42,538 bases of DNA, from positions 165,245 to 207,782 of the forward strand of contig CAZBPY010000001.1 of NCBI GenBank assembly GCA_964493895.1, written 5' to 3'. This DNA comes from an uncultured Candidatus Saccharibacteria bacterium. Lineage in GTDB: Bacteria; Patescibacteriota; Saccharimonadia; Saccharimonadales; JAGQNJ01. The position numbers were made by a program, and so were the translations under genes. Below are positions 2,669 through 37,153 of this stretch, one piece after another (position 1 is the stretch's first letter; each line of letters starts with the position of its first letter). The notes beneath the pieces were generated by a model that saw only the letters and a list, made by a program, of their open reading frames with translations, had not been told where the DNA came from and searched no databases.

Positions 2669-3050
2669 CTCACTTATCAAGTATTTGATTGCCGGAGGCG
2701 TTGCATTTGTAACCGAGTACTCTATATTTATCTTGCTTTTTAGTGTTATCGGTATCGGTGTGCTTTTTGCTAATATGCTGGCATTTGCATGCGGTATATT
2801 AACAAGCTTTACTTTAAACCGCAGCTGGTCATTTAAGAAAAGCGTGTTCCACTATGCTAAAACCACCCAGGCTGTGTTATATGTAATGTTAGCCATTACA
2901 AACCTTGGCTTGACAAGTTTTGTGCTAAGCATGTCAAGAGCAATAGGTATTAGAGAAGAAATAATAAAACTACTAATGATGGGCGCGATTGTTGTGTGGA
3001 ACTTTTTAATTTTCAATAAGGTAATATTCAAGCAAAAGGCTATGGACTAG
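2649..3050 (+). CDS. GtrA family membrane protein (lipid-linked sugar translocation)
   Basis: KYLIAGGVAFVTEY, SFTLNRSWSF, WNFLIFNKVIF; about 4 TM segments, 133 aa. Confidence 0.88.
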   Translation: MIRKINNSLIKYLIAGGVAFVTEYSIFILLFSVIGIGVLFANMLAFACGILTSFTLNRSWSFKKSVFHYAKTTQAVLYVMLAITNLGLTSFVLSMSRAIGIREEIIKLLMMGAIVVWNFLIFNKVIFKQKAMD

Positions 3051-5275: not shown

Positions 5276-6129
5276 GACGATACCTCATTGCGTATATATT
5301 CTGCTAGATCATCCATCCAACTACGAGATTTGAAGCCGGATGATTGTATCTTATCAAGTTTGAGAGTACTCTGCAGGGGTCGCCGGGCAATACCAGTTTT
5401 GCCATGGTAATATTCCTCGGTGGATGTGTCGGTTACTTTCAAATCAAAGCCAGCATCAGCAAATATTTGTCTGGTAACTTCTGCCCAACTCACTGATTCA
5501 CCATCATTAGTAACATTGTAGGTGCCAAAAGGCGCCCCATTCGTTAATAGATGATCGATAGCTCGCACTAGTTCGCTAGTAAAAGTTAAGCGGCCAATCT
5601 GGTCGGAAACGACTGTTGGGCTAACACCTTTTTGACCAAGACCCAACATGGTTCTAACAAAATTTTTGCCTTCGCCAATCACCCAGCTGGTGCGCAGGAT
5701 ATAGAACTTATCTAGCTGTGATATCAGTAAATCACCGGCAGCCTTACTGGCTCCGTAGACATTTAATGGAGCAAAATCCTCATCTTCATCGTGCGCTGAC
5801 TGACTGCCGTCAAAGACATAGTCAGTAGATATATGTACTACTATCAGGTCGTTCTCCCAGGCAATATGGGCTAAGTTCTTGACGGCCTCGGCATTAACTT
5901 TCCAGGCAGCTTTGCGTCCCTCTTCGGTTTCAGCTCCATCGACATTTGTATATGCTGCTGCATTGATAACCACCTCGACATCAGACCAGTCAAAATTATC
6001 AACCGATTCTTTATTGGTGATATCCAGTTCGTCAATATCGGCGAATTGGGCTTTAGGATACTTAGCTCGTAAAGCTAGGCCTAGCTGTCCATTGGCTCCA
6101 ACAATAAAAATTTTTGAATCGTCCATCAT
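5272..6129 (-). CDS. rmlD: dTDP-4-dehydrorhamnose reductase
   Basis: [39 protein letters not shown] (YxxxK), LRTSWV. Confidence 0.95.
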
Positions 6130-13039: not shown

Positions 13040-13445
13040 AATCAAGCGCCTCTTGGCCTATTCCATCACCGGCGGAGCCTGGTTTTGGTCGGGCTATTTA
13101 ACATTTGCAGTCTTGTATTCGGGCTTGGGTTGGTCGCTGTGGTGGGCCAAATTGATCGCCAATTTTGTCGGCATTGCCGTAAACTTCGTTTTAGAACGAA
13201 CTTGGGTTTTTAACCGTGGCCGCCGCAATAAACGCTTAACAGTAGTAACTGAACGCTACATCTTGCTGACAATCATTAACTTAGGTATCGACTACTTGAT
13301 TGTTAAATCCCTGCAAGATTACTTCGGTGTCACCCCTTACATCGGGCAATTCGTATCGGCTGGTTTCTTCTATGGCTGGAACTACATGTGGTACAAATAC
13401 TGGGTCTTCGCCGTAGCTCGCAAAACACGCAAAGGTTATGTATGA
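12987..13445 (+). CDS. GtrA family protein
   Basis: RLLAYSITGG, NFVLERTWVF, WNYMWYKYWVF; TATAAT 11 nt upstream. Confidence 0.85.
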   Translation: MSRTKPKQPIKQKKWRNEIKRLLAYSITGGAWFWSGYLTFAVLYSGLGWSLWWAKLIANFVGIAVNFVLERTWVFNRGRRNKRLTVVTERYILLTIINLGIDYLIVKSLQDYFGVTPYIGQFVSAGFFYGWNYMWYKYWVFAVARKTRKGYV

Positions 13446-14718: not shown

Positions 14719-14747
14719 AAACCACTACATATAGTGTGACCTAGCCA

Positions 14748-14903
14748 TGTTATGCTAGTAATACATTAACAAAAAAACACTGGAAGCAGGTGGAATTCCT
14801 GCGCTATGCCGTAACGGTGACAGCCCGATACAGTTAAAGTCTTCCGAGCAGAAGCGAGATTTTCGGACATAGCCTCGTTTTCACAGGAAGACGAGGATTT
14901 TTT
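14748..14903 (+). promoter_or_regulatory. Extended -10 promoter followed by a structured ~140-nt 5' leader (candidate attenuator/riboswitch)
   Basis: TGtTATGCT at 14748-14756; stems GCAGG/CCTGC (14786-14802), GCTATG/CATAGC (14803-08/14868-73), GTCTTCC/GGAAGAC (14839-45/14886-92). Confidence 0.5.
14873..14903 (+). terminator. Intrinsic terminator-like hairpin immediately before the start codon at 14904
   Basis: 10-bp stem CCTCGTTTTC/GAAGACGAGG (one G-U), ACAG loop, then ATTTTTT and ATG. Confidence 0.65.
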
Positions 14904-16256
14904 ATGCCCAGCCCGGCCTTAGCCGAAGTCTACCAGTTTAACGAAGTAGCCGACCAACCGCCGCAAGTGATAATTGTGCCGGAAATGGCCGATGATCAAC
15001 TAGTACGTCACCGAGCTGCTCGATTTGCTGGCCAACTAGCCAGCCAATCAACTGTCGAAGTAGACAAAGCTCTGACTGATGCTGAACCGCACACCACACT
15101 ATTTGAAGCTGTGACCACTGGCAATAGTGATCTAGTCCGAGCTAATGTCGAGGCTAATATGGTGGAAATTGCCTTTAAAGCCGGCTTTGTAACAGAAGTT
15201 CAATTGCAGGAGGACGAAAATGGACATACTCATCAGTACGGACAGAGTCTTAAGTCGATCCAAGCCAATAATTTGCTGCACGGTACAGATAGTGGCGAGA
15301 TGCATCAACGATCGCAAGCTGAAAACAGAAATGTCTTTCGGTTTGAATCTGTCAAACAAACGGGCTTACTCCAGAACCACTGGTTCGTGACTGTTTCTAG
15401 AACCGCTACTGAGATGACAGAGAGGGCGATGGATCAGGCTGGGTTCTTTACTGAAACCATGAGTCTATCTATTCAGGCCACTACTGACTTGGACGGTGTT
15501 TTGACTATGGAATCGGCCTTTATGGCTGGGGTTGCTGAGGAGGGTGGTGAGCGGCGTGATGAAGAGATAGTCGCAGCCATCGGTGAGGCTATTGGTGTAG
15601 ATTTGCGCGGTCTGTCAGCGACAGAATTATTGGATATGCCGTTATTAATTCCGAAATCTTTAATGCCGAATGGAACTATCGACTTGGTAGCCATGGGCGA
15701 TGAACCATTTGGGACTTTCTTTGGCCAGAACAAGCCAGGGCAGGATTACCTTGCTTACCGCGAAGCTTGCCGCCAGCACCGGGCAATGTTTAGCCAGAAG
15801 GTCGATAAAGTAACTGATCAATTGATGAAAGAAGCTGTTCATATCAAGGATGAGATTGATGCCACAAAGCGCCTCCACGAACTTTGCGGTGATGAAATGG
15901 TCAGACAGGCCGTAGTCGACGAGTGGATAGATCCTGGAGTTTTCGGGCCACAATCAAAACCCTTCATTATCGAAGCTCGCCGGCAACTAGCACTTGGAAA
16001 CAGCCATGCCGGACTGGAGGCGACCAAAAAAGCCTTAGAAGTAGCGGACCCCCGTTCGTGTGCGTTCTCATCAAAAGCCGGAAACAATAGCCTGGAAAGA
16101 TCAGAAAACGACTCCAGGCCATCTGACGAAGCCGATGATTTTGGCCCACTATGGTTTAAATGCAAGAAAGGACATTGGAATAAACGAAAGCGCGCCAAGA
16201 GCTCTAAAGACTTTATGTCTCACTGTAAAACCTGTGGTGTAAGTGTGGCTTGCTAA
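14904..16256 (+). CDS. Hypothetical 450-aa acidic protein with a C-terminal Cys/His cluster
   Basis: Long open frame; C-terminus FKCKKGHW...HCKTCGVSVAC suggests a zinc ribbon; no family recognised. Confidence 0.8.
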   Translation: MPSPALAEVYQFNEVADQPPQVIIVPEMADDQLVRHRAARFAGQLASQSTVEVDKALTDAEPHTTLFEAVTTGNSDLVRANVEANMVEIAFKAGFVTEVQLQEDENGHTHQYGQSLKSIQANNLLHGTDSGEMHQRSQAENRNVFRFESVKQTGLLQNHWFVTVSRTATEMTERAMDQAGFFTETMSLSIQATTDLDGVLTMESAFMAGVAEEGGERRDEEIVAAIGEAIGVDLRGLSATELLDMPLLIPKSLMPNGTIDLVAMGDEPFGTFFGQNKPGQDYLAYREACRQHRAMFSQKVDKVTDQLMKEAVHIKDEIDATKRLHELCGDEMVRQAVVDEWIDPGVFGPQSKPFIIEARRQLALGNSHAGLEATKKALEVADPRSCAFSSKAGNNSLERSENDSRPSDEADDFGPLWFKCKKGHWNKRKRAKSSKDFMSHCKTCGVSVAC

Positions 16257-16265
16257 AATAGAAGG

Positions 16266-16856
16266 ATGGACAAACAGCGCATCGGAGTTTTTAGCGGTAC
16301 TTTTGACCCGGTTCATCGCGGGCACATCGAGTCTTGTGTGGTGGCCTTAGGGACTTTGATGCTGACAACAGTTTGCCTGTTTTTGGAGAAAAAGCCGCGG
16401 CGCAAAACAGGGGTGGCTGATTTTCGTGATCGGGCCAATATGCTTGATCTGGCCACTATAGATTACCCTAGTTTGCGGATTGTCGATCTGGAGGAGGATA
16501 ATGTCACGACGGATAATGCTCTTAATTATCTGGAAAAGCAATTCCCGGGCCGCGAATACTGGTACATAATCGGGTCAGATATTTTAGAGCACCTGCCGTC
16601 CTGGCCCAAAAGCGACAAGTTGCTTAAAAAGTTCAATCTGTGCGTGGTGCTGCGTGAAAATAATGAATTTGATAAGGTGACCGCCGCCGTTAAAAAGCTT
16701 CAAGAAAAATATCCGGATACCCAGTTTGTGGTGCTGCCCAGTGTTTGGTCACCAATTTCGTCGTCAAGTGCCAAAAAACAGCTTAAAAAAGGTGAATTAG
16801 TGACCGGCTTGGACCCGGCAGTCCAGGAGTATATCAAGCGTCACAACATTTATTAG
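16266..16856 (+). CDS. nadD: Nicotinate-nucleotide adenylyltransferase-like (cytidylyltransferase superfamily)
   Basis: GVFSGTFDPVHRGH (HxGH), IIGSDILEHLPSW, PISSS, VQEYIKRHNIY. Confidence 0.82.
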   Translation: MDKQRIGVFSGTFDPVHRGHIESCVVALGTLMLTTVCLFLEKKPRRKTGVADFRDRANMLDLATIDYPSLRIVDLEEDNVTTDNALNYLEKQFPGREYWYIIGSDILEHLPSWPKSDKLLKKFNLCVVLRENNEFDKVTAAVKKLQEKYPDTQFVVLPSVWSPISSSSAKKQLKKGELVTGLDPAVQEYIKRHNIY

Positions 16857-37077: not shown

Positions 37078-37153
37078 GGGGCGGTAGCTCAGTGGTTAGA
37101 GCAGTCGGCTCATAACCGATTGGCCGAAGGTTCAATTCCTTCCCGCCCCACCA
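37078..37153 (+). tRNA. tRNA with CAU anticodon (probably Ile2/lysidine; elongator Met not excluded), CCA encoded
   Basis: Acceptor GGGGCGG/CCGCCCC, D-arm GCTC/GAGC, anticodon arm GTCGG-CTCATAA-CCGAT, T-arm GAAGG-TTCAATT-CCTTC, A73, CCA. Not fMet (no C1:A72, no three G:C pairs in the anticodon stem). Confidence 0.95.

Follow-up and report, generated by a model that had tools for sequence, protein, structure and literature searches.

In an uncultured Candidatus Saccharibacteria bacterium (GenBank assembly GCA_964493895.1, contig CAZBPY010000001.1, forward-strand positions 165,245 to 207,782; 42,538 nucleotides (nt), referred to here as the window, whose coordinates are used throughout), a structured leader precedes a gene for a 450-amino-acid protein without an assigned function, referred to here as X. 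The locus raises the question of what kind of RNA this leader is, and of how it might control the gene behind it. An earlier note, made from the sequence alone, had proposed a novel attenuator or riboswitch in which terminator and antiterminator are mutually exclusive. The leader (14766-14903) is an additional member of the known cobalamin clan and no new RNA class; very probably, as predicted from its sequence, it works as a class-II-like riboswitch for cobalamin (corrinoids), turning expression OFF. The coordinates of its elements are collected in Table 1.

The leader is a member of the cobalamin riboswitch clan

A default Rfam scan of the window, which applies gathering scores, reported only a tRNA; the riboswitch was not called because its score lies below the cut-off. 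In a scan by local E-value, RF01689 (AdoCbl-II; AdoCbl, adenosylcobalamin) matched 14763-14840 over the full length of the model (positions 1-81) with 35.0 bits and an E-value of 9e-7, a significant covariance-model match to the cobalamin clan (Rfam CL00101). The curated gathering score of RF01689 (36.5 bits) was exceeded by the orthologous leaders L006 (45.1 bits), L001 (42.1 bits), L008 (41.9 bits) and L055 (38.0 bits), the curated cut-off of RF00174 by L010, L012, L030, L041, L053 and L059, and that of RF01482 by L095. As these leaders are called cobalamin riboswitches at curated thresholds, the copy in the window is best regarded as a slightly sub-threshold member of the clan. The Rfam scan that had been named in the earlier note as a check thus returned a cobalamin match below the gathering score, and the view that the RNA is novel and fits no known riboswitch consensus is contradicted by the E-value and by the orthologs above curated thresholds. 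The leader appears to be a routine cobalamin riboswitch, and the claim to a new class should be dropped.

Taken as a single sequence, the leader folds only modestly better than chance (minimum free energy -39.1 kcal/mol, z = -2.08, 8 of 200 shuffles equal), and the case was therefore built on related loci. These were gathered by exact-protein look-ups and DNA pattern scans. Because a 15-nt pattern of L5, the loop of helix P5, matched many unrelated genomes by chance when used alone, the pattern matches were filtered with our own covariance model (R1), which scored the leader at 99.3 bits and found one copy only within the window. Thirteen loci encoding relatives of the 450-amino-acid protein were fetched; all of them have a gap of approximately 170-245 nt 5' of the gene, and conservation of the leader within it is striking. 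The elements of the leader follow a fixed order: UUAACAA and an A-rich stretch come first, then P3, GAA and the P4 hairpin (loop GUGnAAUUC), then CUGUGCCGCAACGGU, the P6 insert, which varies, AAGUCCGAUACAGC and AAAG, and finally a hairpin with a CGAGCA loop, a spacer, the terminator and the ATG. The core sequences of the clan (L4 GGUGnAAnUCC, and the B12 box AGyCMGA running into the 3' strand of P3) are found in the leader as the L4 motif GGUGGAAUUCC at 14789-99 and the B12-box region AGCCCGAUACAGU, and the matching ortholog columns are invariant or near-invariant. In the 5' element, T, A, A, A and A are invariant across 10 orthologs.

Covariation maintains a class-II-like aptamer

A MAFFT alignment of 10 orthologous leaders, which was not fitted to any structure, was scored against the cobalamin architecture together with the downstream hairpin (19 pairs). 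Pairing was found in 94.2% of cells, and 12 of the 19 pairs had changed on both sides; none of 500 shuffles matched this pairing, and slid controls reached 32-50%. In a model-fitted alignment of 38 sequences, the corresponding values were 95.4% and 14 of 19. P3 occurs among the orthologs as CUG/CAG, UCA/UGA, CUA/UAG and CCG/CGG, P4 as eight different stems, and P6 as CGG/CCG and CUG/CAG. P5 in the window carries a compensatory change from G-C to A-U, and the differences between the window and its orthologs inside helices are compensatory. The P3-P6 four-way junction is thus maintained by covariation, and the stems whose conservation in homologous loci had been put forward earlier as a further check are kept, with compensatory changes; one of them, the GCAGG (14786-90)/CCTGC (14798-802) hairpin of the earlier note, is P4. 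De novo folding of the alignment with RNAalifold recovered P4 and P13, the hairpin downstream of the aptamer. RNAalifold also offered a local ACUGU/ACGGU hairpin in place of P5 and P6, which was rejected: it is broken in three sequences and finds no support in covariation.

The architecture resembles that of class II cobalamin riboswitches, which are defined by the absence of a P2 loop-stem-loop between P1 and P3 and by a small P6 extension (PMC7367189). Only 13 nt (UUAACAAAAAAAC) lie 5' of P3 in the leader, so there is no P2 loop-stem-loop, and P6 is closed by a loop of 7 nt in the window and by a hairpin of up to 40 nt in the orthologs. The leader thus has both class II features. For P1, cmscan paired 14763-68 with 14835-40, two of the pairs being non-canonical; among the orthologs only a short A-U complementarity (UUA/UAA) was seen, RNAalifold returned no P1, and the helix is not convincingly supported.

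The predicted expression platform can pair P13 with a terminator

All four P13 stem pairs covary in both alignments. The P13 loop, L13, reads CG(N)GCA in 36 of 38 loci that had been selected on the L5 sequence alone. With a single base bulged out, L13 (CG(A)GCA) complements L5 (UGCCG), and the varying N, the sole variable loop position, is the position predicted to be bulged.

The 10-bp hairpin (14873-14896), T6 (14898-14903) and ATG (14904) given in the earlier note are present, and a terminator scan agreed. A hairpin with a U-tract abuts the ATG in 22 of 24 family leaders, whose sequences in this region are divergent. The Shine-Dalgarno sequence lies within the terminator 3' arm, in the orthologs as in the window, and transcriptional and translational repression would therefore be coupled.

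In a transcript that ends before the terminator 3' arm, the minimum-free-energy structure is the 8-bp inner antiterminator helix (-7.0 kcal/mol, compared with approximately -2 kcal/mol for P13 alone). A terminator was detectable in 22 orthologs, and in 21 of them the platform shortened in this way has the terminator 5' arm paired to the loop and 3' arm of P13. Overall, such complementarity exceeds that of shuffles (mean z -1.8; 10 of 21 inside the best 5%). With the terminator complete, P13 plus terminator (-16.7 kcal/mol) and a nested long hairpin of inner and outer helices (-18.8 kcal/mol) are near-isoenergetic. The layout is that of the Priestia megaterium metE riboswitch: the P13 3' arm can pair with the terminator 5' arm, this antiterminator is more stable than P13, and the terminator lies 3' of both.

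The complementarity between GTCTTCC and GGAAGAC that the earlier note had pointed out is exact, but it makes up no more than the antiterminator's outer half; the switching element that is conserved is the pairing between the terminator 5' arm and the loop and 3' arm of P13. The outer complementarity arises because the P13 5' arm, P13 3' arm, terminator 5' arm and terminator 3' arm pair in a chain, and it probably has a further role as outer helix in the ON conformer. The proposal of a riboswitch with mutually exclusive terminator and antiterminator ahead of the 450-amino-acid gene is thus supported, both by comparison and by the alternative pairings.

Proposed mechanism of switching

Transcription would probably start a few nucleotides past the extended -10 element, and the RNA would fold into the P3-P6 four-way junction. 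With a corrinoid bound, L5 would kiss L13 and so stabilise the weak P13. Its 3' arm would then be locked in P13, the terminator would form, and transcription would stop just 5' of the ATG with the Shine-Dalgarno sequence buried in the terminator 3' arm. In the ligand-free RNA, P13 would be too weak to persist, and GAAGCGAG would pair with CUCGUUUU once the terminator 5' arm had been transcribed. GUCUUCC would then join GGAAGAC, giving one long hairpin that excludes the terminator and leaves the Shine-Dalgarno sequence free; gene X, and probably the NadD-like gene behind it, would therefore be expressed under B12 scarcity. Transcription termination is thus probably the OFF switch of gene X.

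The same aptamer and ligand might instead act mainly on translation, the hairpin hiding the Shine-Dalgarno sequence and termination being minor. This is the less likely course, though one to be taken seriously: the burial of the Shine-Dalgarno sequence in the window and its orthologs fits it, at least one ortholog (L146) has a hairpin and no U-tract, and published class II cases such as env8 use sequestration of the ribosome-binding site (RBS) (PMC10327014). A U-tract right after the hairpin, kept in 22 of the 24 leaders, would be needless for occlusion of the RBS alone, however, and the two modes are compatible. In L146, which lies on the reverse strand, the hairpin after P13 sequesters the Shine-Dalgarno sequence, and the family therefore includes purely translational variants.

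Several observations weigh against a terminating cobalamin riboswitch in the window. Its score is 1.5 bits under the RF01689 gathering score, and the cmscan alignment to this model has a 2-nt gap in the B12-box region. The kissing-loop pairing leaves no covariation, because both loops are nearly invariant. The complementarity between P13 and the terminator is not significant in the window taken alone (z -0.6) and needs three G-U pairs. No B12-dependent enzyme or B12 transporter was found in the 42-kb window, and the locus was present in DNA runs (activated-sludge metagenomes) and found in no RNA-seq run. The first of these points has a wider bearing: as the curated cut-off misses this copy by so little, default scans may leave some of the B12 regulation in Saccharibacteria unannotated. 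A full-text search of an incomplete literature collection returned nothing relevant on cobalamin riboswitches in Saccharibacteria or Patescibacteria.

Genes behind the same subtype point to a corrinoid ligand

Riboswitches with the same L5, L13 and core were found elsewhere, in genomes and metagenomes, ahead of genes for DUF4430/transcobalamin-like binders, a cobalamin adenosyltransferase (Cob_adeno_trans), a TonB-dependent receptor, a CobG-like protein and an ATP-cone/class I ribonucleotide reductase (RNR) small subunit. In B12 binders of the transcobalamin type, DUF4430 forms the C-terminal domain (PMC4350170). The DUF4430 genes behind the subtype encode either small membrane-anchored proteins or proteins of 530-600 amino acids that combine an alpha/alpha-toroid with DUF4430. 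Among 105 first open reading frames (ORFs) 3' of riboswitches in the metagenome scan, 42 belonged to the X superfamily and 25 were DUF4430-like, so that the X superfamily is the commonest gene class behind the subtype in this sample.

In other lineages of the candidate phyla radiation (CPR), the subtype was seen before DUF4430-type genes in L015, L174 and L236, in L095, L055, L154, L157 and L164, and in approximately 30 more loci. In the longer proteins the toroid is prenyltransferase/SQHop-cyclase-like and the architecture resembles transcobalamin; the small ones are anchored N-terminally. Approximately 3.9 kb 3' of the riboswitch-controlled gene of L040 lie two ORFs, one of which we take to resemble NrdR and the other the N-terminal part of a class II (B12-dependent) RNR.

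A cobalamin-like aptamer of changed specificity, i.e. a truly novel variant that binds another ligand, would account for the sub-threshold score, for the gap in the B12-box alignment and for a gene X to which Pfam and NCBIfam attach no known B12 link. Such a variant is nevertheless improbable: orthologs exceed curated cut-offs, the differences in the window are compensatory within helices, and the same L5, L13 and core control the DUF4430 binders, the adenosyltransferase, the TonB receptor and the B12-independent RNR. As the subtype precedes canonical B12 genes, a changed ligand is unlikely.

An activating (ON) corrinoid riboswitch, with P13 as the antiterminator, is less likely still in our estimation, although one such switch exists, the cobT riboswitch of A. 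halodurans (PMC10327014). In the leader, P13 and the terminator do not overlap and can coexist, and competition with the terminator comes from the non-P13 pairing; moreover, the subtype stands before genes of the B12-uptake type, which are expected to be B12-repressed.

A repressing corrinoid riboswitch also accounts better for the locus than an origin in the neighbouring uppP operon. According to the latter explanation, the hairpin is merely the uppP operon terminator and the other structure is fortuitous. It is the sole terminator-like site between uppP and the next gene, and read-through uppP transcripts would end there too. The leader and terminator accompany the 450-amino-acid gene in loci that lack uppP (L003, L005, L006, L008, L010 and L012), however, and are therefore not simply an uppP terminator; in addition, a conserved predicted promoter lies between uppP and the leader, and the covariation is strong. 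A merely fortuitous structure is accordingly very hard to credit, and the uppP terminator as sole explanation, which the earlier note had kept as its alternative, is already refuted by this synteny.

Least credible of all is leader-peptide attenuation by the GTG mini-ORF of the earlier note (14790-14837), which is present with 15 codons inside the leader but is not conserved (0 to 46 codons in orthologs), its GTG being the conserved L4 motif GGUGnAAUUCC, its 'conserved peptide' CAATV merely a translation of the conserved RNA core, and no Shine-Dalgarno sequence being seen before it.

One further feature of the earlier note, a long-range stem between GCTATGCCG (14803-11) and CGGACATAGC (14864-73), held in part. 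The complementarity is present in the window (-13.0 kcal/mol, z -3.3), but it is not conserved (z -1.3 to +1.4 in 22 orthologs). Either chance or a role as a lineage-specific L5 decoy may account for the stem, which could be a competitor of the kissing loop as long as no ligand is bound.

Gene X and its neighbours

X belongs to a widespread family of Saccharibacteria and other ultrasmall (CPR) bacteria. A HMMER search with X returned 460 clusters at 50% identity, 332 of them with E <= 1e-30; approximately 38 word-indexed relatives were found, one of which is named Candidatus Saccharimonadales. No family was found for X in Pfam or NCBIfam. The protein has an alpha/beta region at its N-terminus and a zinc-ribbon-like CxxC...CxC at its C-terminus, together with a helical region, the conserved Cys386 and a disordered linker. 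An AlphaFold2 model was obtained with a predicted local distance difference test (pLDDT) score of 82 and a predicted template modelling (pTM) score of 0.78; residues 389-439 are disordered and the C-terminal zinc-ribbon-like part is of low confidence. Foldseek with this model found nothing at E < 0.001 in the PDB or BFVD, and a profile search of PDB sequences gave only a faint zinc-ribbon resemblance.

Riboswitch-linked proteins that form another BLAST cluster (L030, L053, L061, L143, L177 and others) proved to be remotely homologous to X (hhalign probability 97.4%, E = 1.3e-11, 331 columns). The superfamily also includes L184, L208 and L218; throughout it, the body diverges fast and the Cys motif (S/G-C-G/P) and C-terminal zinc ribbon are kept.

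The NadD-like gene lies 10 nt 3' of X and is probably co-transcribed with it. The same NadD-like gene follows X in Saccharibacteria loci of both clusters (e.g. L030, L053, L061 and L208), and this adjacency suggests an operon or a functional link.

In L005 and L008, the database gene calls start 5' of the terminator (position 3001 in each), and a conserved ATG (MA.AAEQ...) directly follows the terminator; the called N-termini of both are probably wrong.

The riboswitch is the only functional lead for this large family, which has a confident predicted fold and no structural match in the PDB or BFVD. X is presumably linked to B12, and its predicted repression by B12 suggests a B12-sparing substitute or a role in corrinoid acquisition or handling. 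In other CPR lineages, the regulatory position held by X is taken by the DUF4430/transcobalamin-like B12 binders. The X superfamily may, as a tentative proposal that falls just short of an even call, be an unrecognised B12-linked family, either a B12-independent substitute or a corrinoid handling or scavenging protein, maybe under a second control. The link between X and the riboswitch makes the response of reduced-genome episymbionts to B12 shortage directly testable.

Promoter region and other RNAs

The extended -10 element and the A-rich tract (14771-14777) listed in the earlier note are both present. Of 27 related leaders, 23 have the extended -10 element, and 20 of these have it at a distance of 3-23 nt (mostly 7-18) upstream of the conserved UUAAYAA. 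Upstream of it is a 14-bp near-perfect dyad, which occurs at the same position in most orthologous leaders with the consensus yACTAyATnTrGyG and is either a candidate operator or part of the promoter. Another dyad, AACTACATGTGGTA, is found at 13380-13393, 8 nt before the start of the adjacent gene for a protein with a LexA DNA-binding domain. The LexA-like gene might be autoregulated through the dyad; a copy ahead of this gene was seen only in the window and L010. X may be under a second control, through the dyad and the neighbouring LexA-domain regulator.

Other RNAs were seen as well. The tRNA gene of the window lies at 37078-37150 on the plus strand (RF00005, 76.7 bits), and a T-box leader (RF00230, 95.8 bits) lies at 5658-5847 on the minus strand of L055, a Saccharibacteria contig.

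Table 1. Predicted elements of the leader, and genes and sequence features around it, in window coordinates.
Feature	Position	Strand	Basis or remark
14-bp near-perfect dyad CACTACATATAGTG	14723-14736		approximately 12 bp 5' of the extended -10; matches both strands
Extended -10 TGTTATGCT (TGnTAnnnT)	14748-14756	+	putative promoter, sequence-based
Aptamer	14766-14834	+	class-II-like cobalamin
Conserved 5' element UUAACAA and A-rich tract	14766-14778	+	presumably RNA 5' end and J1/3; no P2 arm
Four-way-junction core	14779-14834	+	RF01689 match, own model, covariation
P3	14779-82/14831-34	+	core helix
P4	14786-90/14798-802	+	loop UGGAAUU
P5	14805-07/14811-13	+	L5 GCC
P6	14815-17/14825-27	+	core helix
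B12-box-like J6/3 AGCCCGAUACAGU	14822-34	+	core
P13 hairpin	14839-14855	+	C41-G54, U42-A53, U43-A52, C44-G51, plus G39-C55
L13 CGAGCA	14845-50	+	proposed kissing-loop partner of L5
Proposed L5-L13 kissing loop	U07 G08 C09 C10 G11 with A50 C49 G48 G46 C45	+	complementarity; A47 bulged
Inner antiterminator helix	GAAGCGAG 14851-58 with CUCGUUUU 14874-81	+	P13 3' arm plus GAG with terminator 5' arm
Outer antiterminator helix	GUCUUCC 14839-45 with GGAAGAC 14886-92	+	exact complement
Long-range complementarity GCUAUGCCG (P5/L5 region) with CGGACAUAGC (antiterminator loop)	14803-11/14864-73	+	9 bp, window-specific
Intrinsic terminator	14873-82/14887-96, U6 14898-903	+	10-bp stem, loop ACAG; terminator scan; -14.7 kcal/mol
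Shine-Dalgarno GAGGA	14893-97	+	inside terminator 3' arm
Gene X, 450-amino-acid protein	14904-16256	+	X superfamily, function without assignment
NadD-like nucleotidyltransferase gene	16266-16856	+	PF01467; TIGR00482 below its cut-off

Comparison with known cobalamin riboswitches

The closest relatives in architecture are the class II riboswitches (RF01689 AdoCbl-II; env8 HyCbl (hydroxocobalamin), PDB 4FRN; Cbl-IIa and Cbl-IIb of Johnson et al. 2012, PMC7367189). The leader shares with them the P3-P6 junction, the L4 sequence GGUGnAAUUCC, the ACGGU...AGyCCGA P6/B12-box region, the absence of a P2 arm and a very small P6 extension, together with the kissing loop proposed here between L5 and L13 in the expression-platform hairpin. 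It differs from them in its L5 GCC(G) and L13 CG(N)GCA, the L13 of env8 containing the RBS, and in being 2 nt shorter in the B12-box (J6/3) region than the RF01689 consensus, as aligned by cmscan. Moreover, its P1 has at best a few A-U pairs, and its output would be given by an intrinsic terminator in which the Shine-Dalgarno sequence lies as well. Class IIa and class IIb differ in their selectivity for AdoCbl or for methylcobalamin and HyCbl, a distinction that is not readable from the leader sequence.

With class I (RF00174), the leader has the core consensus CUGUGCCGCAACGGUAA ... AGUCCGAUAC in common, and the orthologs above the cut-off of that model are those with a P6 hairpin insert. The copy in the window differs from class I in lacking the P2 arm and the P7-P11 extension, and in closing P6 with a 7-nt loop.

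The closest relative in mechanism is the corrinoid riboswitch of P. megaterium metE, which represses at the level of transcription and whose mechanism was shown by compensatory mutagenesis (PMC10327014). In that switch, the kissing loop stabilises P13 through the bases CCG/CGG; otherwise the 3' side of P13 pairs with the terminator's 5' side (PMC10327014). The leader would follow the same logic, with P13 alone weaker than the antiterminator. The kissing core of metE is CCG in L5 and CGG in L13, for which the leader has CG-A-G with a bulge in L13. The two differ in that the aptamer of the metE switch is of the class I type and its regulated gene is known, and in that the 5' arm of P13 in the leader can also pair with the 3' arm of the terminator, so that its two hairpins can isomerise into one.

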